NCBI GenBank assembly: GCA_963805625.1
Contig: CAWDVE010000016.1
Location: 128,001-192,000, forward strand
Source: an uncultured Candidatus Rokubacteria bacterium
GTDB taxonomy: Bacteria; Methylomirabilota; Methylomirabilia; Rokubacteriales; DASRDR01
Reading direction: 5' to 3'
DNA length: 64,000 bases
Under the pieces are notes generated by a model that searched no databases, was not told where the DNA came from, and was given only the letters and a program-made list of their open reading frames with translations. Shown piece by piece: positions 3,118 through 27,453 of this stretch; the stretch's first letter is position 1, and the number at the start of each line of letters is the position of its first letter. Position numbers and translations under genes: made by a program.

Positions 3118-3177
3118 CGAGCCCGAGCGCATCACCGGCCGCCTGATCCAGTTCCGCACCCGGATCGCTGGCCCGGG

Positions 3178-3965
3178 CTATCGCCTTGCCAGGCCCGCGA
3201 TTTCCGACTCTCCCAGCGCCCGATTGTAGAGGCGCAGATCGCTCATGAGCCCATCGAAGTAGTCGTTGACGCCGAGGCCGATCGTGAGCGGGCGGTCGTT
3301 GTTCAGGTTGTATTCGCGCGCGTGGAAGGAGGTCGACACGGCGACGGGCGCGCCGTCCACGTAGAGCCTGAGCACACCCCCGTCGCGCACGGCGACGACA
3401 TGGCGCCATCCGGCGGGGAAGACACGATCCCACGTCGCCATCTTTCCGGCTTCCATGGCATAGACGCGCCCGGAGGGGAGCGTGCCGGCGAAGAGCTTGC
3501 CCTGGAAGACGGCCATCGACCAGACTCGCCGCAGCGGCGCGGACGCGGTATCCAGAGTGCCCATGAAGGTGAACTGCTCGTCGTCCATCCGCCACACGTT
3601 GGCCATCGGCAAGGAGCCGACGTAAGCCTTGCCGTTGTAGAGGGCCATGCCCATGATCTCGCGCTCGTAGCCGACCCGTCCCAGCAAGGTCCACGTCTCG
3701 CCGCCGTCGTAGCGGTGGACCTCTCCCTCGGGCCACGTGCCGACGTAGAGCCGACCCTGGCTGGTCACCGCTCCGTAGGTCTGCGTCGACCCCGCGGGGC
3801 AGCCGGCGTAGACCCATTCCGATCCGCTCCCATCCCTGGCCTTGGACCGGATTCGCCCAGCTGAACACCATGGTTGCGAACTCTCAGACGGGCTCCCACG
3901 GGCTCGTGTGAGTCGGCGGTGAAGGGCCAGTGGGCGATGAGGCCGCTATCGGATCGTTCGCTCAA
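3178..3965 (-). pseudogene. LamG-like/beta-propeller protein, internally deleted and frame-broken
   Basis: N-terminal LIAHWPF segment joined out of frame near 3825 to propeller repeats (LYVGTWPEGEV, AYVGSLPMANV, LFAGTLPSGRV) and a LamG C-terminus (WRHVVAVRDGGVLRLYVDG...FDGLMSDLRLYNRAL). Confidence 0.7.
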
Positions 3966-4146
3966 GGTCGCGTCTCCTACGGGAAGTTGGTCCGGGCCCG
4001 CAGCCCGGCAGCAGCCGGATGGCGATGTGTGGGCCGTCCGCGATGAAGGTGGTCTGGGTGATGTGCGGGCCAGGAGGAACGGCTCTACGGATCTTGTCGC
4101 TGGACGTGGGTTGGCGTCGAGGGCAGGCGAGGCACCGCTCGGCCCG

Positions 4147-5295
4147 TCAGGGGCATGTACTCGTCCCGGAGTACTCGTAGGCCGCCCGGCCGGTCAGGGA
4201 GACCAGCACCTCCAGCGGGGACCGGCCTTGACGCGCCGCGACCTCGGCGAGGGACGGCCCCGCCGCGGGCTCGCTTGCAAGAAGACAGACCGGTGCTCCC
4301 GCCCGCGCGCTCTCGACCTCGCTCACGTCCACGACGGCGTGCTCCAGGGAGACCGAGAGCACCGGAGCGTCCCGGCCCTCCACGCGAACTCTCTGGCCCG
4401 CCTTCGGGACGAGGATGGAGTTCGAGTAGCCGATGGGCAGTGTGCCGAGCCGCGTCGGGCGGGTGGTCTCGTGGCCGCCGCTCGACCCGAAGCGCGCGCC
4501 GGGCGCGACGTCGCGCAGCGGGCCGAGCGTCGTCCGGACCTCCGTGAGCACGGGGTGCGTGCCGACGGGGGTCGGGAGCCACGCCGGCTCGATTCCGAAG
4601 AGGAGTTGCCCCGGGCAGACGGCGTTCGTCTCGGGCGCCTCCAGGCCGCACGCGATGCCCGCGCTCGCGAGCGCCTGCACCAGAAGCGGCCCCGCCGTGG
4701 CGGCGCGGATCTCGGCCACGACGCGCCCGAACTCCGCGAGCCGCTCTTCCACCCAGGCCGCCCCCTCGCGTCCGCCGAAGGGAAGGTGCGTGAAGACGCC
4801 CGCCAGCCTGATGCCCGGGAGCGCCGAACGGATGCGAGCCGCCAGGTGGGCGGCGTCCGCGAGTGGAACGCCGACACGCCCGAGCCCGCTGTCGACCTTC
4901 AGGAAGATCGACGGCGGGCGCGCGCCGGCCGCCCTGGCCAGCACCGTCGCCTCGGCGAAGGACTGGACGCCGACGGTGATGCCGGCCTCGAGCAGGGGGG
5001 CGGGATCGCCGCCCTCCCCGGTCGGGAAGAGCAGGATGTCGCAGGTGACGCCCCAGCAGCGGAGCGCGAGCGCCTCCGCGGGGCTCCCGAGCGACAGCCA
5101 GCGGACCCCCTCCCCCTCGAGACAGCCGGCCACCGCCCGGAGGCCGTGGCCGTACGCGTTCGCCTTGACGCACGCGATCAGCTCGGTGCCCGCCGGGAGC
5201 CTGCGCCGGACCAGGGCCAGGTTCTGTCGAAGCGTCGCGAGCGAGACGACGGCGCGCAGATGGGCGGCGGGGGCCAGCGTCTCGAGCGCGATCAC
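4147..5295 (-). CDS. Alanine racemase-family PLP enzyme with divergent active site
   Basis: CVKANAYGHG PLP-lysine motif, KVDSGLGRVG, GVFTHL, LPIGY; likely GTG start at 5295. Confidence 0.85.
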   Translation of the reverse strand: MIALETLAPAAHLRAVVSLATLRQNLALVRRRLPAGTELIACVKANAYGHGLRAVAGCLEGEGVRWLSLGSPAEALALRCWGVTCDILLFPTGEGGDPAPLLEAGITVGVQSFAEATVLARAAGARPPSIFLKVDSGLGRVGVPLADAAHLAARIRSALPGIRLAGVFTHLPFGGREGAAWVEERLAEFGRVVAEIRAATAGPLLVQALASAGIACGLEAPETNAVCPGQLLFGIEPAWLPTPVGTHPVLTEVRTTLGPLRDVAPGARFGSSGGHETTRPTRLGTLPIGYSNSILVPKAGQRVRVEGRDAPVLSVSLEHAVVDVSEVESARAGAPVCLLASEPAAGPSLAEVAARQGRSPLEVLVSLTGRAAYEYSGTSTCP

Positions 5296-5356
5296 TGTCT
5301 TCGGTCTCGTCGCCGATCGCTCGGCTGGTCCCGGCTCGGTTCCGCCGCCCCGACCG

Positions 5357-6154
5357 TCAGGTCGTGACGCCCGCGCGAGGGGACAGGAGGCAGTCGTCGG
5401 GAAGCGGCACGACGGGCGTGAAGTCCCGGTGGTGCTTGTAATCGGGGCGCGCGAAACGCGTCTGGGCGTTGGCGATCGGGTTGAGGATGAGCGAGAAGAT
5501 CGACCGATCCCAGGGCGACATGTTGGGTGGCGAGCCATGCACGAGGCAGTCACCGAAGATGAGCGCCGTTCCCGCCAGCCCCGTGGCCGTGACGAGCCCA
5601 CCCGCTCCCGCCAGCCGGGTCACGGTCTCGTTGTCCACGGTCCACAGCGCGTAGCTCGTGGTCTCGGTGTCGAGCGCGGTGCGGACGGGACCCTGCCGGT
5701 GCGAGCCGCGAATGAAGACCAGGGGCCCGTTGTGCTCGGACACGTCGTCCAGGAAGACGTGGAGATTCAGCGCGAGCGGCTCGGGCACGCCGTCCTCCGC
5801 GTGGTGCGTGGCGAAGTCGTAGTGCCACTGCCAGGCCTCCCCGGAGAATGCCACCTTGGCGTTGATCTTCGCCTGCTGGATGTAGAGCCGGTCGGTGTCG
5901 AGAATCTGCCGCGCCGGGTCGACGAACCGCGGATGCCGGCAGAGCCGGGCGAAGACTTCGTTCCGGAGGTGGAGGCCCATGACGGTCCGGACCTCGCCAC
6001 TCGCCTTCTCGCGAATGTTGGCCGGGGAATCCTCCGCGAACAGACGTGGGAGCTCCGCGCGCAGGACGTCGACCTCGGCCCTCGAGAAGAGCCCCGGCAG
6101 GACCAGGAAGCCCTGCGCGTGGAAGTGCGCCAGTTGAGCCGTCGTGAGCCGCAC
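5357..6154 (-). CDS. Phytanoyl-CoA dioxygenase family Fe(II)/2OG hydroxylase (EctD/proline hydroxylase-like)
   Basis: WQWHYDFATHHAEDGVP resembles the EctD signature; HxD...H triad (LVHGS); NGPLVFIRGSH. Confidence 0.88.
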   Translation of the reverse strand: MRLTTAQLAHFHAQGFLVLPGLFSRAEVDVLRAELPRLFAEDSPANIREKASGEVRTVMGLHLRNEVFARLCRHPRFVDPARQILDTDRLYIQQAKINAKVAFSGEAWQWHYDFATHHAEDGVPEPLALNLHVFLDDVSEHNGPLVFIRGSHRQGPVRTALDTETTSYALWTVDNETVTRLAGAGGLVTATGLAGTALIFGDCLVHGSPPNMSPWDRSIFSLILNPIANAQTRFARPDYKHHRDFTPVVPLPDDCLLSPRAGVTT

Positions 6155-6160
6155 GAGTCG

Positions 6161-6191
6161 AGGATAGTCGAGGCAGCGCCCGGGCTGTCAA
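6161..6191 (-). promoter_or_regulatory. sigma70-type promoter, leaderless for the dioxygenase gene
   Basis: TTGACA (6191-6186), 19-nt spacer, TATCCT (6166-6161); predicted TSS coincides with GTG at 6154. Confidence 0.55.
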
Positions 6192-6225
6192 GGTGACCGT
6201 CCTTGTCGGGTCCCGGGCTCGGGGA

Positions 6226-7035
6226 CTAACCCCCCGCGCTACGGAGCTGACGGGAGGGCTCGGAGTGGCCGGTCTGCGACGTGTGGCGGCCTGTGGGCTC
6301 GCGGACCAGGTCCGCGTGGCCGGCGGTCGTGTCGCCCGGCGGGATTCCTCGGGCCACCCGGAAGCCGTAGTCCGAGTAGCGAAGGTGGGGCGGCAGGCTC
6401 GAGCGGTGGGCCACCGGGCTCCACGGCTCCTGATGGCGCCAGGCGCCGCCGCGCGACACGCGGCGAGAGCCCTCCGGCGGACCCATCGGGGCGCGGACCG
6501 GCTCCGGGCCGTAGGCATCGGCGGCGTACCAATCCCGGCACCATTCGTGGACGACACCGGCGAGATCCGTCAGCCCGAAGCCGTTGGCCGGCCCCTGTCC
6601 GACGTGCGGCGGCGCGGGCAGGGGTCCCGGCCGATTCCCGAACCAGCGGGCGGGCGGCTCGTCGCCCCACGGGTAGCGGGCGCTCTCCCGGCCGCCCCGC
6701 GCGGCGCGCTCCCACTCCGCCTCGGTTGGCAGGCGGTGGGAGTGGCCACTCTCGCGTGTCAGCCACTCGCAGAAGAGAACGGCCTCGGCCCAGGTCACGC
6801 CCACGACCGGCTGCTCGGGATCCGAGAGCCGCGGATCGGCCCAGAAGGGCGGGGGCGGTGCACCGCTGGCCTGGAGGAATGTGCCGAACTCGGCATTGGT
6901 GACCGGCGTGCGACCCAGCCTGAAGCCGTCGACCCAGACGGGATGCGCGGGCCGGGCGTCGGGTAGGCCGGCGTCCCAGCCCATCTGGAACCACCCTGAC
7001 GGGATTTCCAGGAACTCCACGGGTTCGCCGGCCAT
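6226..7035 (-). CDS. SUMF1/EgtB/PvdO (FGE-sulfatase domain) protein lacking the FGE catalytic cysteines
   Basis: PVTNAEF, PVVGVTW, RLPTEAEWERAARGG, NGFGLTDLAGVVHEWC, RGGAW...GFR; start may be GTG at 7020. Confidence 0.88.
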   Translation of the reverse strand: MAGEPVEFLEIPSGWFQMGWDAGLPDARPAHPVWVDGFRLGRTPVTNAEFGTFLQASGAPPPPFWADPRLSDPEQPVVGVTWAEAVLFCEWLTRESGHSHRLPTEAEWERAARGGRESARYPWGDEPPARWFGNRPGPLPAPPHVGQGPANGFGLTDLAGVVHEWCRDWYAADAYGPEPVRAPMGPPEGSRRVSRGGAWRHQEPWSPVAHRSSLPPHLRYSDYGFRVARGIPPGDTTAGHADLVREPTGRHTSQTGHSEPSRQLRSAGG

Positions 7036-7069
7036 TCTACGTGGGCAAGCTGCCTGCTAACATGAGCGC

Positions 7070-8584
7070 GTGCGCGTCGAGCCGCCGCCGGCCGATCCGA
7101 TTCTGGTTGCGCTGGACGTGGGCTCGTCCTCCGTGCGGGCGCTCGCCTTCGACCGGCTCGGGCGGGGACTCGACCTCGGGGGCCAGCAGCCGTACGAGCC
7201 GACGACGACGCCCGACGGCGGCGTCGAGATCGACGCCGACCGGCTGTTCGCGCTGACCGCCGAGGCGCTCGACACTCTCATGGCCATCCTCGGCCTGCGT
7301 ACCGGCGGCGTGGCGGCGGTCGCTCTGAGCACCTTCTGGCACACAGTGCTCGGTCTCGGACCGGACGATCGCCCATCGACCCCAGTCTATTCCTGGGCGG
7401 ACACGCGGAGCGTCGGCGCGGTGGGGGCGCTCCGCGCGCGGGTCGACGAGAAGGCGTATCACGCGCGGGTCGGATGCCGGCTTCACACGTCCTATCTCCC
7501 GGCGCGGCTCTGGTGGCTCCGCGAGCGCGACCCTGCCGCGTTTCGCGGGGTGCGACGCTGGGTCTCGTTCGGGGAGTACGTGGGGCTTCGTCTCTTCGGC
7601 GAGCTCCGCACGAGCGTCTCGATGGCGTCAGGGACCGGCCTCTTCGACCAGTGGGCGCAGCGCTGGGACCCTGGGATCCTCGAGCTCCTCGGGCTCGGCG
7701 TCGAGCACCTCGGCCCCATCGTCGACCTCGGCCAGCCCTTCCGCGGGCTCCGGCCCGAGTTCGCGGGGCGCTGGCCCGCGCTGGCGCGCGTTCCATGGCT
7801 GCCGGCGCTGGGCGACGGGGCGTGCTCCAACGTCGGCGCCGGCTGCACGACGGCAGAGCGGGCGGCGCTCATGGTCGGGACGTCCGGCGCGATGCGGGTC
7901 TGCTTTTCCGCCGACGCGGTAGCCATCCCGGACGGTCTCTGGTGCTACCGCGTGGACGGCCGCCGCCTCCTCCTGGGCGGCTCCCTGTCGAATGGCGGGA
8001 GCCTCTACGCGTGGCTCACCGAGACCCTCGACCTGCCCCCGCTCGAGCGCGTGGAGGAGACGCTCCAGGCGATGGAGCCCGATGCCCACGGCCTAACGAT
8101 GCTCCCGTTCCTGGCCGGGGAGCGGAGCCTCGGCTGGGTCGCCGGCGCGCGGGCCGCCGTCGTGGGTCTCTCGCTGGCGACGCGGCCCGTCGACATCGTG
8201 CGCGCAGCGCTCGAGACCGTGGCGTACCGCTTCGCGATGATCCACGAGCGGCTGCGCGACGCCTGTCCCGGGCTCCGGACGGTGGTCGGCACCGGCGCCG
8301 CGCTCCTGGCCTCGCCCGCGTGGATCCGGATCATGGCCGACGCCCTCGGGGTGGCGGTCACGCCGTCGGCGGAGCCCGAGGGATCGAGCCGTGGCGCGGT
8401 CCTTCTCGCGAGTGAGGCGCTCGGGCTGATTCCCTCCCTCGAATCGGCCCCGGCCGGCACGCGGCCGGTGATCCCGACCGATCCCGCGCGGCGGGCCCGG
8501 TACCGGGTCGGCCTGGCCCGGCACCGGCAGCTCTACGACCTTCTGGTGCCGCACACGACCGCGGAGAGGAGAGCGGTTTCATGA
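7070..8584 (+). CDS. gntK: Gluconokinase, FGGY family carbohydrate kinase
   Basis: [49 protein letters not shown]. Confidence 0.85.
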
Positions 8585-17515: not shown

Positions 17516-17632
17516 TCAGGGATCCGAGCAGTCGCGCGTGTATCCGCAGTGCGGGCAGACGATCTTGCACTTGATCTCGCGCATGATCGCGCCGCAGACC
17601 CAGCAACTGTGCACGATCGCGTCGTGGGCCAT
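17516..17632 (-). CDS. 38-aa zinc-finger microprotein (HVO_2523-like), absent from ORF track
   Basis: MAHDAIVHSCWVCGAIMREIKCKIVCPHCGYTRDCSDP*; GC-rich third positions; upstream -10 box. Confidence 0.8.
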   Translation of the reverse strand: MAHDAIVHSCWVCGAIMREIKCKIVCPHCGYTRDCSDP

Positions 17633-17644
17633 GTCGAGTCGGGT

Positions 17645-17651
17645 TATAGTA
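17645..17651. promoter_or_regulatory. Overlapping bidirectional -10 elements
   Basis: TATAGT (+, 17645-17650) and TACTAT (-, 17651-17646) between divergent genes. Confidence 0.5.
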
Positions 17652-17657
17652 AGCGCG

Positions 17658-18245
17658 ATGTGCCGCCCGCTTCAACCTTTTGGAGGACGCGTGCCCCTCC
17701 TGCTCCTCCTGGCGGGCCTTCTCGGAAGCGGATGTGCTCGGGTCACGCTGGATGCCGTGCGTGCTGACGTTGCCGCGGGCCAGGGCCACCTCATCACCAC
17801 CGTGCCCTTCATCGCCCAGGACGCCTATCAGTGCGGCCCCGCGGCGCTCGCCATGGTCCTCCGCTACTGGGGGGTGGCCGCCGACGCAGAGGAGATCGGG
17901 CGTACTCTCTACCTGCCCTCCGCTCAGGGCGTCCTAAACCTCGAGCTCGAGTTCGAGGCCCGCCGGCGCGGGTTCCGCACCCAGGCCTTCGAGGGCTCCC
18001 TCGAGCGCGCCAAGACGGAGCTCCGCCGCGGCCGTCCAGTCATCGTGTTCCAGGACCTGGGGCGGGGGCCGGTATCCATCCCGCACTTCGCCGTGCTGCT
18101 GGGCTACGACGACCGGGCCGAAGTGGTCGTGCTTCACTCGGGAGCGACTCCTTACCAGGTCCTCTCGTACGCCGAGTTCCTCCGGACCTGGGCCGCCCGC
18201 CGGGGCTGGTCACTCCTGATCACGCCGCCCGGCGCCGCCACGTGA
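17658..18245 (+). CDS. Peptidase C39-like (PA2778 family) lipoprotein
   Basis: Lipobox LGSGC; QDAYQCGPAALAMVL (Cys), PHFAVLLGYD (His), LHSG; start ATG 17658 or GTG 17691 (GGAGG RBS). Confidence 0.85.
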   Translation: MCRPLQPFGGRVPLLLLLAGLLGSGCARVTLDAVRADVAAGQGHLITTVPFIAQDAYQCGPAALAMVLRYWGVAADAEEIGRTLYLPSAQGVLNLELEFEARRRGFRTQAFEGSLERAKTELRRGRPVIVFQDLGRGPVSIPHFAVLLGYDDRAEVVVLHSGATPYQVLSYAEFLRTWAARRGWSLLITPPGAAT

Positions 18246-20164: not shown

Positions 20165-20208
20165 TCGGCACGGCGCCGGCGGGGTGCCCTGTGAAGGAGG
20201 AGCGGACC

Positions 20209-20736
20209 ATGCGGGGAGCGCGGGCGTGGACGCTGGGCATGGTGATCCTGGTGGGGCTCATGAGCCTGGGCGCGACGGAGCCGCCGAAGGTGGGCGGCCC
20301 GGGGGCGAGCCCGCAGGAAGCCGAGGTGACGGGCGTCGTGGTGGACCCGAGCACGCGGCAGCCGATCGTTCTCCTCCAGGGCAAGCGGGACCGTCGGGCG
20401 CTCGCGATGACGATCGGCCGGTTCGAGGCCAACGGGATCGCCATCGCCCTCCAGGGGGTCACGCCCCCGCGCCCGCTCACGCACGACCTGTTCCTGAACG
20501 TCCTCGGCGACCTCCGCGCGTCCCTCAAGCGCATCGTGGTGACCGATCTCCGCGACGACGTCTTCTACGCGCAGTTGCACCTGGAGGCCGCGGGGTCGCG
20601 GCTCACCATCGATTCCCGGCCCTCGGACGCCATCGCACTGGCGCTCCGGGCGCGGGTGCCCATCCTGGTGGAGGACCGGGTCTTCGACAAGGCGGACCGG
20701 CTCCTGCCCAAGGGTGGGGGCCCGCCGACGCTCTGA
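20209..20736 (+). CDS. Bifunctional nuclease (DUF151) family protein with N-terminal signal/anchor peptide
   Basis: IGRFEANGIA, PPRPLTHDL, FYAQL, IDSRPSDAIALALR; AAGGAGG RBS before ATG 20209. Confidence 0.9.
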   Translation: MRGARAWTLGMVILVGLMSLGATEPPKVGGPGASPQEAEVTGVVVDPSTRQPIVLLQGKRDRRALAMTIGRFEANGIAIALQGVTPPRPLTHDLFLNVLGDLRASLKRIVVTDLRDDVFYAQLHLEAAGSRLTIDSRPSDAIALALRARVPILVEDRVFDKADRLLPKGGGPPTL

Positions 20737-20742
20737 CCGCTC

Positions 20743-21699
20743 GTGCGTGACGGACCCGGATCGAGCCGAGCTCTGCCCGCGGCCGAGTGGGCCGTCCAGC
20801 GCCGCCTGGATGACCTGATCGGCAAGCTGGAGCCGAAGTTCGGCGACCTTCGAGGCCGGGTCGAAGTTCTCCCGCGCCCGGGCGTGACCTTCGCGATGAT
20901 CGGCGGGGCGGACACGGCGAAGGCGGCGATCAGCGGCCTGTCTCACGCCCTCCGGATGCCCGATCTCTACCGGCGCTGGGGCATCACCCCGCCGCGCGGC
21001 GGGCTCCTCTACGGGCCACCCGGGAACGGCAAGACCTTGCTCGCGAAGGCCCTGGCCACCCTGTCGGAGGCGCTCTTCTACCACTTCCGCCTGGCGACCC
21101 TCACCTCCAAGGTGGGCCCGCTGGCGGCCGAGGTGATCAAGGAGGTGTTCCAGCTCGCGAGCTCGGAAGGCAAGGGCGTCCTCTTCTTCGAGGACGCCGA
21201 GGCGCTCTCCTTCGAGCACATCCTTCCGCCCGAGCGCGCCCGGGAGGCGGCGGCGCCGCTCCTCATCGGGATCTGCGAGCTGCTCGACGGGCTTCGCGCC
21301 TTTCCCTCGCTTCTCGTCGTTGCGTCCACCAGCCGTCCCGACGGGATCGGCTCGCTCCTCATCAGCCCCGGACGTCTGGACCACCTGATCGAGGTGCCGC
21401 TGCCCGACGGTCCCGCCCTGCAGGAGATCCTCGACATCCAGCGCAAGCGTGCGGAGGCCCTGGCCGAGCGGACGCTCTTCGAGCCGATCGACTCGGAAGT
21501 GCTCGTGTCCCGGCTGGCCGGGATGAGCGGTGGCGAGGTCGCGGAGGTGGTCCGCCGCGCGCTCGAGGAGAAGGTCCACCGGTCCGGGGACGGTCCGGAG
21601 GCCGGACTCGTCCGGACGGCCGATCTCCTCACCGCCGTGGACGAGTCGCGCCGCGTGCGGGACGTGGTCGTCAAGATCCGCTACGGCCAGTACCTCTGA
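20743..21699 (+). CDS. ARC/Mpa/CDC48-like AAA protein with degenerate catalytic motifs and C-terminal GQYL
   Basis: VTFAMIGG, PPRGGLLYGPPGNGKTLLAKALA, FFEDAE (Walker B position), ASTSRPD...SPGRLD, MSGGEV; ends KIRYGQYL*. Confidence 0.88.
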   Translation: MRDGPGSSRALPAAEWAVQRRLDDLIGKLEPKFGDLRGRVEVLPRPGVTFAMIGGADTAKAAISGLSHALRMPDLYRRWGITPPRGGLLYGPPGNGKTLLAKALATLSEALFYHFRLATLTSKVGPLAAEVIKEVFQLASSEGKGVLFFEDAEALSFEHILPPERAREAAAPLLIGICELLDGLRAFPSLLVVASTSRPDGIGSLLISPGRLDHLIEVPLPDGPALQEILDIQRKRAEALAERTLFEPIDSEVLVSRLAGMSGGEVAEVVRRALEEKVHRSGDGPEAGLVRTADLLTAVDESRRVRDVVVKIRYGQYL

Positions 21700-24128: not shown

Positions 24129-25118
24129 ATGATCGAGGTTGATCGCCTCACGAAGCGGTACGGACCGGTCCCGGCCATCCAGGACGTCTCCTTCACCGTC
24201 GAGAAGGGCCAGATCGTCGGCTTCCTGGGCCCGAACGGTGCGGGCAAGACGACGACCATGCGGATCTTGTCCTGCTTCATGCCCGCCTCGAGCGGGACCG
24301 CCCGGGTCGCGGGCTACGACGTGTTCGAGCAGTCGCTCGAGGTCCGCCGCCGGATCGGCTACCTACCCGAGAATGTGCCGCTCTACGGCGACATGACGGT
24401 CGTCGCCTACCTGGACTTCGTCGCCAACATCAAGGGCCTCGGCCGCAGCGAGCGGCGGCGGCGCGTCGGCGAGGTGCTCGAGCGGTGCCAGATCCCCGAC
24501 GTGCGCGAGCGCTTGATCGGGCGGCTCTCGAAGGGGTACCGCCAGCGCGTCGGCCTCGCCCAGGCGCTCATCGCCGATCCGGACGTGCTAATCCTCGACG
24601 AGCCGACGATCGGGCTCGATCCCAAGCAGATCGTCGGCATCCGGCAGCTCATCAAGTCGCTGGCCGGTGCCCACACGGTCATCCTTTCGACACACATCCT
24701 GCCCGAGGTGTCGATGGTGTGCGAGGGTGTGATCATCATCAACCGTGGACGGGTCGTCGCCTCCGGCCCGCTCGACCGGCTCATGCAGGAGCTCTCACCC
24801 GTGGCGCGGGTCCAGGTCCAGATCGAGGGCCCGGCCGAGCTGGTCGCGCAGTCGCTCCGGGCCCTCCTCGGCGTCCAGCGCGTGGAGGCGCGGGGTGTCG
24901 TCGACGGAACCGGCACGTTCGTCCTCGAGGCCGACCGCACGCGGGACGTGCGGCGGGAGGTCGCCCAGCTGGCCGCACAGCAGCGCTGGGGTCTCCTCGA
25001 GCTCAAGGCCCTCGACCTGTCGCTGGAGGACGTGTTCATTCGCATCGTGGCCGGCGAGGAGCACGAGGAGGCGATGGTTGACGTCGTCCCCGGGGCGGCC
25101 GAGGAGGTGGCGTCGTGA
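24129..25118 (+). CDS. ABC transporter ATP-binding protein (GldA-like)
   Basis: GPNGAGKTT, LSKGYRQRVG, LILDEPTIGLDP, LSTH. Confidence 0.95.
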   Translation: MIEVDRLTKRYGPVPAIQDVSFTVEKGQIVGFLGPNGAGKTTTMRILSCFMPASSGTARVAGYDVFEQSLEVRRRIGYLPENVPLYGDMTVVAYLDFVANIKGLGRSERRRRVGEVLERCQIPDVRERLIGRLSKGYRQRVGLAQALIADPDVLILDEPTIGLDPKQIVGIRQLIKSLAGAHTVILSTHILPEVSMVCEGVIIINRGRVVASGPLDRLMQELSPVARVQVQIEGPAELVAQSLRALLGVQRVEARGVVDGTGTFVLEADRTRDVRREVAQLAAQQRWGLLELKALDLSLEDVFIRIVAGEEHEEAMVDVVPGAAEEVAS

Positions 25119-25882
25119 GGACCTGGGCGGTCTTCAAGAAGGAGCTCCGGGTCTACTTCAGCTCGCCGATCGCCTACGCGGTCCTGACGATCTTCTCGCT
25201 GATCAGCGGCTGGTTCTTCTACAACGTGTTCGGCTACTACGTGCTGGCGAGCATGCAGGCGGCGATGAACCCCATGATGGCGCGTGACCTCTCGGTCATC
25301 GAGGGGGTGCTCCGGCCCCTGTTCCAGAACATGAGCGTCATCATGCTGCTGATGATGCCAATCCTCACCATGCGCCTGTTCTCCGAGGAGAAGAAGAGCG
25401 GCACGATCGAGCTGCTCCTGACCTACCCCGTGCGAGACGGAGAGGTCCTCCTCGGGAAGTACCTGGCCGCGTTCGCAGTCTTCGCGGCGATGCTGACGCT
25501 GACGCTCGCCTATCCGCTCATCATGGCCTGGGTCACCCCGCTCGAGCTGGGACCGCTCGCGACCGGCTACCTCGGGCTCCTCCTCCAGGGCGCCGCGTTC
25601 ATCGCGATCGGGATCCTGATCTCGTCGCTGACCGAGAACCAGATCGTGGCGGCGGTGGCGACGTTCGGCACCCTCCTGATCTTCTGGGTGATCGCCTGGG
25701 CGTCCGACTCGGCCGGCGGGACCCTGGGGCGCGTGCTGTCGCACGTGTCGCTCACCGAGCACTTCGACTCGTTCGCCAAGGGCGTGATCGACACGAAGGA
25801 CCTCATTTACTACCTGGACCTCACCATCCTGGCCTTGTTCCTCACCCTGCGCTCGCTGGACTCGAAGCGGTGGAGAGGCTGA
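25115..25882 (+). CDS. ABC-2 permease (GldF-like)
   Basis: KKELRVYFSSPIAY, TMRLFSEEKKSGTIELLLTYP, SSLTENQIVAA. Confidence 0.93.
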   Translation: MRTWAVFKKELRVYFSSPIAYAVLTIFSLISGWFFYNVFGYYVLASMQAAMNPMMARDLSVIEGVLRPLFQNMSVIMLLMMPILTMRLFSEEKKSGTIELLLTYPVRDGEVLLGKYLAAFAVFAAMLTLTLAYPLIMAWVTPLELGPLATGYLGLLLQGAAFIAIGILISSLTENQIVAAVATFGTLLIFWVIAWASDSAGGTLGRVLSHVSLTEHFDSFAKGVIDTKDLIYYLDLTILALFLTLRSLDSKRWRG

Positions 25883-25887
25883 CCGCC

Positions 25888-27453
25888 ATGGACCGATTCG
25901 CAAGCCCGGCACTCTTCGTCGGCCTCGGTGGCGTCGTGGCCGGCTTCCTCCTGCAGACCTACCGGCCGTCATGGACCAAGGTCTGGCCGGCGCTCCTCAT
26001 CCTGGGCGGCCTGGTCCTCCTCTTCGGTCTGTACGCGAGCTTCGCGACCAACGTGCGCCGGGCGCTGGCGGGGCGCGCGACCCGGTACGGCCTCAACGCG
26101 GCGGTCCTGGTCGTCCTGATCCTCGGGGTCATCGTGCTCGTCGAGGCAGTGTCGTACCGGCACAGCTATCGTGTCGACCTGACCGAGAACAAGCGCTGGA
26201 GCCTGTCTCCCCAAACCGCGAAGGTGGTGAGCGAGCTTCCGGTGCCGATCAAGGCCGTGGCCTTCTTCCGGCCCGACCAGCCCGGTAAGCGGACCGCGGA
26301 GGATCTTCTCAAGCAGTACGCGGGGCGCTCGGACGGAAAGTTCACCTGGGAGGTCGTCGACGCGGACCGGACCCCCCTGCTGGCCCGGGAGTACGGCTTC
26401 GAGAGCTACGGGATGGTCGTCCTCGAGGCGGTCTTGAAGGACGGACAGAAGAAACAGGAGAAGCTCCTCGACCTGGACGAGGAGAAGCTCACCAACGCCC
26501 TGATCCGGGTCACGCGTCCGGGGAAGCGTGTCGTCTACTTCCTCAAGGGCCACGGGGAGAAGGACCCGGGCTCGAGCGATCGGACTGGCTACGGCCAGAT
26601 GAAGTCTGCGATCGAGAAGCTGAACTACGAGGTCAAGGATCTGGTCCTGGCGCGGGAGGTCAAGGTGCCGGACGACGCCACCATCGTGGTGGTGGCCGGG
26701 CCGCAGAGGGAGCTCCTGCCCAACGAGATTGACGCCATGGTGGGGTACGTGGCCCGGGCCGGGAAGGTCCTCTTCATGGTCGATCCGTTCCAGACCACCG
26801 GACTCGGACCGGTCCTCGAGCGCTGGGGGCTCGGCCTCGGCAACGACGTGATCATCGACATCAGCCCCACGGGCCGGCGCGCCGGCGCGGGGCCGGAGAT
26901 TCCCGTCGTCGCGGACTACCTCTCCCACCCGATCACCCGAGACTTCCGGTTCGCGACCTTCTTCCCGGTCGCACGCACCGTTTCGGTGAAGGAGAAGCCG
27001 CCCGAGGGCGTGAGCGCGCAAGGGCTCGCGCGGACGTCCGGCGAGAGCTGGGCGGAAACCAGCCAGGACCAGATCCGGACGGGCCAGGTCAAGCCGGACC
27101 CCGGCGAAGCCCGAGGCCCCCTCACGATCGCCGCGGTCGCGACCGTCGACGCCAAGGACGCGCCGGCCGACCGGAAGAGCGCGAAGGCGCGGATCGTCCT
27201 GGTCGGCGACTCGGATTTCGCGGCGAACGAGTTCGTCAATCTCTCCGGCAACCGCGACTTCTTCCTCAACACGCTCTCGTGGCTCGCCGAGGAGGAGAAC
27301 CTGATCGCGGTGCGGCCGAAGGAGTCGCGCACCGCCCCCGTTTTCCTGACCGGCGCCCAGGGACAGGTGATCTTCCTGGTGCCGGTGGTGTTGATCCCCC
27401 TGACCGTGATCGTGGCCGGCGCGGTGGCGGTCGCCCGCCGGCGCGGGCGGTAG
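25888..27453 (+). CDS. GldG family ABC-type uncharacterized transport auxiliary protein
   Basis: DLTENKRWSLSPQT, VYFLKGHGE, LVGDSDF, GNRDFFLNTLSWL; C-terminal TM. Confidence 0.9.
   Translation: MDRFASPALFVGLGGVVAGFLLQTYRPSWTKVWPALLILGGLVLLFGLYASFATNVRRALAGRATRYGLNAAVLVVLILGVIVLVEAVSYRHSYRVDLTENKRWSLSPQTAKVVSELPVPIKAVAFFRPDQPGKRTAEDLLKQYAGRSDGKFTWEVVDADRTPLLAREYGFESYGMVVLEAVLKDGQKKQEKLLDLDEEKLTNALIRVTRPGKRVVYFLKGHGEKDPGSSDRTGYGQMKSAIEKLNYEVKDLVLAREVKVPDDATIVVVAGPQRELLPNEIDAMVGYVARAGKVLFMVDPFQTTGLGPVLERWGLGLGNDVIIDISPTGRRAGAGPEIPVVADYLSHPITRDFRFATFFPVARTVSVKEKPPEGVSAQGLARTSGESWAETSQDQIRTGQVKPDPGEARGPLTIAAVATVDAKDAPADRKSAKARIVLVGDSDFAANEFVNLSGNRDFFLNTLSWLAEEENLIAVRPKESRTAPVFLTGAQGQVIFLVPVVLIPLTVIVAGAVAVARRRGR

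Follow-up and report, generated by a model that had tools for sequence, protein, structure and literature searches.

Bacterial proteasome biology rests almost wholly on the Actinobacteria and on two activators that carry a C-terminal GQYL motif, Mpa and Bpa, and a gene from an uncultured Candidatus Rokubacteria bacterium raises the question of whether another protein with this tail acts on the bacterial 20S core particle and, if so, in what way. The gene lies at 20743-21699 on the forward strand of a stretch of 64,000 nucleotides, here called the window, which corresponds to C16:128001-192000 of the host genome (contig CAWDVE010000016.1 of assembly GCA_963805625.1; 7.27 Mb, 69% GC, 28 contigs, 99.9% complete). 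It runs from a GTG start to a TGA stop and encodes a protein of 318 amino acids (P0001), hereafter the AAA-GQYL protein, which consists of a single AAA module and ends in GQYL (codons GGC CAG TAC CTC TGA at 21685-21699). An original prediction, made from the letters of the window, had proposed that this protein is a non-hydrolysing pseudo-ATPase and a third type of bacterial proteasome regulator. Judged by its motifs and genomic context, the protein is likely an undescribed cap or regulator of the bacterial 20S, and we give a probability of roughly one half to the more specific reading that in the host it would form a ring that docks via its KIRYGQYL tail in the alpha-ring pockets of the 20S, opening or occupying the gate without unfolding substrates. 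Such a protein would be the fourth type of regulator and not the third, as Cpa is already counted as the third bacterial proteasome interactor in a 2025 minireview (PMC12288473).

The tail itself is the first piece of evidence. In mycobacteria, gate opening of the 20S by Mpa and by PafE/Bpa requires GQYL (PMC12288473, PMC6017811). In the AAA-GQYL protein, translation places it exactly at the C-terminus, as originally stated, within the sequence KIRYGQYL plus stop at 21673-21699 (+), the presumed 20S-docking motif. Among 48,301 stop-to-stop open reading frames (ORFs) of at least 80 amino acids in the host genome, position-specific residue frequencies lead one to expect 0.02 that end in GQYL, and two were found: the AAA-GQYL protein and the canonical Mpa of the host (...TTGQYL), with no third ORF of that length sharing the ending. 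We further compared 32 genomic orthologs, comprising 12 from the host's taxonomic family (f1), 11 from its sister family (f2) and nine deeper-branching orthologs of the phylum, here termed class-level. At overall identities of 43-100%, all 32 end in GQYL and 31 in KIRYGQYL, the remaining one reading KTRYGQYL, and the tail is the most conserved portion of the protein. The eight residues are encoded in 24 distinct ways among the 32 orthologs, with synonymous variation at seven of the eight codons, and the conservation therefore acts at the protein level. The same ending is kept in two wider sets. In the close set of 121 proteins, made up of the query and its 120 top-listed homologs (65-93% identity, a small number carrying the NCBI label Candidatus Rokubacteria or Rokuibacteriota), 120 end in GQYL and 119 in RYGQYL; among 120 metagenomic proteins of the canonical branch, 119 end in GQYL (the other in GHYL) and 118 in KIRYGQYL. 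The conservation of GQYL in orthologs, on which the original prediction depended, is thus borne out, and the tail is a real and strongly non-random feature.

The module that carries the tail has the fold expected of a proteasomal ATPase. A Pfam scan finds one AAA domain (PF00004, E 8.9e-18, 65.4 bits against a cut-off of 21.2) at residues 88-220 and, as the other signal, a weak AAA lid match, and it finds no OB or coiled-coil domain. The top NCBIfam models are those of PAN (NF003069, 133.1 bits, and TIGR01242, 125.6 bits with a cut-off of 500), for which the match is confined to the AAA part (profile positions 102-355), followed by CDC48 at 123 bits, far under its cut-off. An AlphaFold2 model built from 37 homologs (mean predicted local distance difference test score, pLDDT, 89.7; predicted template modelling score, pTM, 0.85) consists of an N-terminal helix at residues 13-33 (20779-20841, +), an alpha/beta core and a four-helix lid, of which the last helix (residues 292-313) leads directly into the five-residue end YGQYL. 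The N-terminal helix is the sole element before the AAA core, in line with the earlier statement that N-terminal coiled-coil and OB domains are missing. Its residues R20, R21 and D24 are invariant among the 37 homologs and the stretch E15-L22 nearly so; in the core, R211 is invariant and K97 and T98 are at least 90% conserved. The structure that matches the model best is 3h4m_A, the AAA domain of PAN from archaea (E 4.9e-19, template modelling score 0.89 on the target).

The host also has the partners that docking would call for. A cluster at C16:534.8-541.2 kb holds mpa (TIGR03689, 749.5 bits), dop, prcB, prcA and pafA, with dop and pafA as its two Pup-ligase-family genes, and pup stands apart from it at C13:478521-478712 (-) (PF05639, 76.8 bits); no Pup ORF was found within the cluster, including the 295-nt gap between dop and prcB. 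All of the genes that the original prediction had singled out, prcA/prcB, mpa, pup, pafA and dop, are hence present. A third PF00227 match in the host was considered as a second 20S and rejected, being HslV adjoining HslU and xerC. No Bpa (PF10759) turned up in the host genome, and as the control genomes likewise gave none, this search had no positive control. Bacterial 20S genes have been described as limited mainly to Actinomycetales and Nitrospirales (PMC13022661). Across 201 sampled genomes of the phylum (Methylomirabilota/Rokubacteria), PrcA (TIGR03691) was detected in 157 and a Pup ligase in 172, and the AAA-GQYL family is present as a single copy in 158, including 13 of 15 genomes of the host's family, 118 of 126 of the sister family, 11/15 in family f10 and 3/3 in f9. 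Four or five of the genomes counted carry a flag as unpublished (G029, G047, G058, G101, G152); their sequences did not enter the analysis, and the conclusions are the same without them.

As for confinement to proteasome-bearing genomes, PrcA was found in 126 of the 158 carriers and a Pup ligase in 10 more, while neither was detected in the remaining 22, several of which are near-complete, and every proteasome marker went undetected in both genomes of genus g10. Such carriers were considered as evidence against docking. In all four that were examined, the best in quality among them (G017, G013, G115 and G106), both conserved mpa-flanking genes are present, the contig stops no more than about 1 kb from them, and its very end encodes the first 120-210 residues of Mpa, with 71-90% identity to the Mpa of a relative; the objection was rejected, as these absences are assembly artefacts. 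The contigs concerned (G017:C212, G013:C78, G115:C15 and G106:C25; loci L050-L053) each end inside mpa, and two other genomes (G014 and G071) hold fragments of the proteasome cluster at contig ends. The proteasome cluster appears to break metagenome-assembled genomes (MAGs) systematically inside mpa, and absence calls from such genomes are therefore unreliable and understate the system. Among the carriers examined, there is no verified case of the AAA-GQYL protein without a proteasome system.

Several observations weigh against docking on the 20S. The gene lies about 390 kb from the proteasome cluster on the same contig, next to conserved BFN-domain and thioesterase genes unrelated to proteolysis, and the break inside mpa is established for four of the 22 marker-less carriers. 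Within the phylum there is no association between the two (both in 126 genomes, the AAA-GQYL protein alone in 32, PrcA alone in 31, neither in 12; n=201), and a proteasome without the AAA-GQYL protein is common, as in families f6 (AAA-GQYL protein in 2/18, PrcA in 16/18) and f7 (4/15 and 11/15). The protein is dispensable for the proteasome system, because many proteasome-bearing lineages are without it. Further, the predicted tail past the last helix is five residues only, and the invariant stretch reaches K-I-R-Y upstream of GQYL, residues that Mpa is without; since these are invariant yet not common to Mpa, the tail may recognise more than, or something other than, the alpha-ring pocket.

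The first alternative builds on these points and holds that the tail binds something else than the 20S, such as another protease, or makes a contact in cis or within the ring, so that the protein would be unrelated to proteasomal degradation. The unlinked gene in its conserved block of unrelated genes, an invariant stretch of eight to nine residues (EKIRYGQYL) that exceeds the GQYL common with Mpa, and the lack of a within-phylum association all fit this view. Against it stand the four-residue match to the tail of the host Mpa, at an expectation of 0.02 per genome, the fold of a proteasomal ATPase module, and the lack of a confirmed carrier without a proteasome, all four examined cases being assembly breaks. 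We consider a non-20S partner unlikely.

If the 20S is the target, the shared tail raises the matter of how the AAA-GQYL protein relates to Mpa and to the other known proteasome partners. We built a quick maximum-likelihood tree of AAA modules with IQ-TREE, with Shimodaira-Hasegawa-like approximate likelihood ratio (SH-aLRT) support only and with PAN, Cdc48 and FtsH loci from named genomes as outgroups. In this tree, the AAA-GQYL family is one clade (SH-aLRT 100), apart from Mpa, PAN, Cdc48 D1, Cdc48 D2 and FtsH. An ortholog with canonical motifs is 28% identical to the host Mpa, compared to 38-44% for archaeal Cdc48 D2 and PAN modules, and it scores 197 bits with the NCBIfam model of PAN and 105 bits with that of Mpa. 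Given this low identity to Mpa and the proximity to PAN and Cdc48, the tail was not inherited by truncation of Mpa, and by these sequence comparisons the family is a separate clade nearer to PAN/Cdc48 than to Mpa. The original assignment was to an ARC/Mpa/CDC48-type module; the ARC/Mpa part does not hold, given the separate clade, the 28% identity, and a score of 69.4 bits of the host protein with the Mpa/ARC model TIGR03689, for which the cut-off is 504.75.

Of the known partners, PAN is the closest in build. Like the AAA-GQYL protein, it has one AAA module and a tail with a penultimate Tyr straight after the last lid helix, and it is the best match by both structure and NCBIfam. The AAA-GQYL protein differs in being bacterial, in forming a separate clade and in having just a 20-residue N-terminal helix in place of a coiled coil and OB ring, and the host form additionally lacks the catalytic Glu, the sensor-1 Asn, the first Arg and the pore aromatic and scores far under 500. 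Mpa/ARC shares the identical GQYL C-terminus, the organism, the classical AAA clade and presumably the target ring, but the AAA-GQYL protein has neither the Pup-binding coiled coil nor the OB domains (PF17758, PF16450), which the same scan does find in the true ARC of locus L037. It also lacks the beta-grasp domain that precedes the tail in Mpa (PMC12288473). Bpa/PafE has the GQYL tail as well, and gate opening without ATP hydrolysis is the likely mode of the host form too, but the folds are unrelated: Bpa is dodecameric and not an AAA protein, and the AAA-GQYL protein has no PF10759 match. Cpa resembles it as an AAA protein with modules of the Cdc48/PAN kind that has been proposed as an additional bacterial proteasome interactor, but Cpa has an N domain, two AAA modules and no HbYX/GQYL tail (PMC6017811). 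The host's own Cdc48-like gene is another locus (C10:~105915-108335; L007:167-892 and 916-2589), with CDC48_N, CDC48_2 and two AAA modules and without an HbYX tail; an apparent frameshift of one base within the Walker A of D1 divides this gene, which is either a pseudogene or an assembly error.

The identical tail also allows a second alternative, in which the AAA-GQYL protein acts on the Mpa pathway, either as a negative regulator or placeholder that competes with Mpa for the pockets of the alpha-ring or as a partner of Mpa subunits in mixed rings. In its favour, the 2025 minireview states that nothing is known of how the association of activators with the 20S is regulated (PMC12288473), and in one genome (G124, locus L037) an ortholog lies tail-to-tail with an ARC/Mpa gene. 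This adjacency is not kept even within the genus (L040), and mixed rings are unlikely because the AAA modules are only 28% identical and fall in separate clades; action on the Mpa pathway is, in our view, quite unlikely. The pair in L037 occupies 3175-4875 (+) and 4986-6002 (-); the ortholog has canonical motifs, the true ARC/Mpa gene ends in GHYL, PrcA is on another contig of that genome, and L040, where mpa is not adjacent, belongs to a congener.

Whether the host protein works as a motor depends on its catalytic motifs, which we read by residue-by-residue alignment to p97/Cdc48 chains. Walker A, GPPGNGKT at residues 91-98 (21013-21036, +), is intact, so that the single AAA module with a complete Walker A is borne out by the ORF, Pfam and the p97 alignment alike. 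Each of the reported losses was likewise confirmed. In pore loop 1 (SKVGP, residues 122-126, 21106-21120, +), LTSKVGP aligns with the p97 loops IMSKLAG (D1) and LTMWFGE (D2) and the aromatic is missing; Walker B, VLFFEDAE at residues 146-153 (21178-21201, +), aligns with VLFFDELD of p97 D2 and reads ED for DE; and sensor-1, ASTSRPD at residues 194-200 (21322-21342, +), aligns with GATNRPD and has Ser in place of Asn. In the second region of homology (SRH), LLISPGRLD at residues 205-213 (21355-21381, +) aligns with AILRPGRLD, and the comparison of ISPGRLD with LRPGRLD shows the first Arg replaced (Ser-x-x-Arg) and the second kept. The protein has the fold of the classical AAA proteins and departs from their catalytic set (Walker B hhhhDE, sensor-1 Asn, SRH arginines), and we regard it as a predicted pseudo-enzyme in which the family fold is kept.

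These changes are common to the close relatives of the host protein. In the close set, GPPGNGKT is found in 115 of 121 proteins, the eight commonest Walker B variants (93 of the 121) read ED or DD throughout, most members have Ser at sensor-1, and Ala, Thr or Ser stands in place of the first SRH Arg among the variants listed, with a pore loop of K/R-V/I-G in the host's family. The genomic orthologs place this state in an evolutionary order. Walker B is DE in all nine class-level orthologs, DE in six, DQ in three and EE in two of the 11 from the sister family, and ED in 11 and DD in one of the 12 from the host's family. The pore loop changes from K-W (8/9) through K-F-G (11/11) to K/R-V-G (12/12) in the same order, sensor-1 is Asn in 8/9 and 2/11 and Ser in 12/12, and the first SRH Arg is present in 5/9, 0/11 and 0/12. 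The Thr/Ser of Walker A is lost in three of the 11 sister-family orthologs. DQ is the classic E-to-Q 'trap' substitution of Walker B. The canonical branch of metagenomic proteins reads ASTNRPD in 109 of 120 members and has an LDEID-type Walker B in 80 of the 82 matched by pattern. In the tree, the sequences of the host's and sister families form one derived subclade (support 100), and median ratios of nonsynonymous to synonymous substitution rates (dN/dS, Nei-Gojobori method) are 0.17 in the host's family (66 pairs), 0.32 in the sister family (55 pairs) and 0.24 at class level (36 pairs).

Since DE, Asn and the KW pore loop persist in the deep-branching orthologs, the pseudo-ATPase condition of the host protein is derived; it is also graded, lineage-wide and maintained under purifying selection. 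This polarity, with canonical motifs in deep branches and graded loss in the host's order, is the main new result of the analysis. The original prediction had argued against simple decay, which is supported by motif losses that are family-wide and by the dN/dS of 0.17, and it had named orthologs with canonical DE and pore loop as a possible sign that the host copy is decaying. Such orthologs do exist in the deeper branches, but the host copy is not decaying, as its state is that of a derived subclade. As an observation on the sister family, the three Walker A losses read GKA or GKG and occur in otherwise well-conserved proteins (loci L026-L031 and L041-L045, 3/11).

A third alternative is that the host protein has kept a functional though slow ATPase and unfoldase activity and feeds the 20S like a minimal PAN, with the Glu-Asp Walker B and the remaining Arg being enough for hydrolysis. 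Walker A is intact, acidic residues occupy both Walker B positions, the whole protein is under purifying selection, and the deep-branching orthologs look competent (DE in 9/9, K-W in 8/9). Nevertheless, all 12 orthologs of the host's family show changes in four independent functional elements at once, namely the pore aromatic, the catalytic Glu, the Asn of sensor-1 and the first Arg, and the sister family has natural DQ (3/11), EE (2/11) and Walker A Thr/Ser losses (3/11), which is the pattern expected when hydrolysis is no longer selected; a slow motor in the host is improbable. Eukaryotic assembly chaperones, Pba1-Pba2, carry HbYX and offer an analogy for a fourth alternative, a 20S assembly chaperone that binds the alpha-ring pockets during assembly of the core particle. 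Such a role would suit an HbYX-type tail on a protein apparently doing no mechanical work, but it is very improbable, as nothing specific speaks for it, the complete ring-forming AAA fold is kept, and in the bacterial systems reviewed no such factors are needed for assembly of the 20S (PMC12288473, PMC13022661).

Docking of a non-hydrolysing ring on the host 20S is therefore the interpretation that we prefer; it is plausible and internally consistent, and it rests on a four-residue motif and its context. In this scheme, the ring would bind nucleotide through the Walker A that it keeps, without hydrolysis or translocation, six GQYL tails would dock in the inter-subunit pockets of the PrcA ring, and the docked ring would open or occupy the gate. 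A ring of this kind would be mechanistically sufficient, because HbYX tails enter the inter-alpha pockets once ATP is bound, and peptides with the HbYX motif are by themselves able to open the gate (PMC5476697). A complex prediction with two copies of PrcA and residues 222-318 of the AAA-GQYL protein gave a median score of 0.38, and a control with PrcA replaced gave 0.35. The family probably began as a minimal PAN-like unfoldase that served the 20S core, which proteins of the same build with intact motifs would still be in the deep branches, and in Rokubacteriales the unfoldase would have turned into a cap that only binds, closer in function to the ATP-independent Bpa/PafE. More tentatively, and at less than an even chance, the natural series of Walker B 'trap' variants DE, DQ, EE, ED would record this conversion from a motor to a passive cap: what began as a minimal unfoldase, with one PAN-like module and a GQYL tail, would have changed into an ATP-binding, non-hydrolysing gate opener in Rokubacteriales, a fourth regulator filling the role of the missing Bpa, a role left open in the host because Bpa was not found in its genome. 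If true, the known set of regulators would be widened by a third protein with a GQYL tail, one that is abundant in a major soil phylum whose Pup-proteasome system is complete. The family would also represent a minimal AAA ring for the study of tail-driven gate opening and a natural evolutionary series from a motor to a pseudo-ATPase.

Among the best 150 matches of 1.84 billion cluster representatives, four are GQYL-ending single-module proteins of about 310 amino acids. Two of them are of the Methylomirabilota type, a third (P0436, ...RIRTGQYL) holds NCBI MAG proteins labelled 'Deltaproteobacteria bacterium', and the fourth (P0385) is without a name; when compared with the orthologs from five class-level genomes, the latter two show 44-50% identity, and two metagenome scans returned no relatives of these divergent clusters. 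At E 1e-70 or better, neither 301 sampled genomes of Actinomycetota nor 151 genomes sampled from the phylum to which a Cystobacterineae MAG belongs yielded the family, ordinary paralogs reaching at most 165 bits, and a search of a large collection with a canonical ortholog returned only relatives at least 80% identical. A search for longer proteins yielded no fused or longer form of the family, giving only multi-domain AAA proteins at 33-46% identity, the named ones being CDC48 family ATPases, and we take this as weak evidence for the absence of fused forms. In the literature, with subscription journals mostly uncovered, searches on the proteasome or pupylation in Rokubacteria/Methylomirabilota and on HbYX AAA proteins of the bacterial proteasome returned no account of the family; the listed papers that mention GQYL concern Mpa, Bpa, Cpa or unrelated matters, and a term search of a survey of new proteasome homologs (PMC8665760) gave no mention of it. 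The gene is overlapped by contigs from four RNA libraries, each of a different study, and the best of these covers 348 nt with 1 mismatch (21056-21403); this is weak evidence of transcription, since DNA carry-over is possible and the strand is not shown, and gaps in the coverage carry no meaning.

The neighbourhood of the gene is conserved at the level of the order as a block of an unnamed ORF, a major facilitator superfamily (MFS) transporter, a BFN-domain gene, the AAA-GQYL gene, a 4HBT thioesterase, and a formate-tetrahydrofolate ligase and/or an ATP-binding cassette (ABC) transporter. The BFN-domain gene (20191-20736, +; PF02577, E 1e-36) is directly upstream of the AAA-GQYL gene in 22 of 23 order-level loci, with a 7 nt gap in the window, and in none of the nine class-level loci; the N-terminus of its product, read by eye, resembles a signal peptide. 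The thioesterase is downstream in 22 of the 23 order-level loci. Class-level orthologs lie elsewhere, and none of the nine has the order-level block. One RNA-library contig (X7, 20514-20801) crosses the junction between the BFN-domain and AAA-GQYL genes, which is not proof of a single transcript.

In one genome (G014, locus L032), the ortholog lies beside a group of genes at 5449-8520 (-) that includes a ThiF/E1-like gene, P0124, with a JAB/MPN-like HxH...S..D motif and no Pfam match, and P0123, a 572-aa AAA gene. These neighbours look like a ubiquitin-like conjugation or defence-type module, and they were not seen beside orthologs in the other loci compared. Elsewhere in the window, and unrelated to the AAA-GQYL protein, are a peptidase C39-like protein at 17538-18245 (+) and, at 24129-27453 (+), a block of three ABC transporter genes (ATPase, permease and a large accessory protein) that is syntenic across the order.

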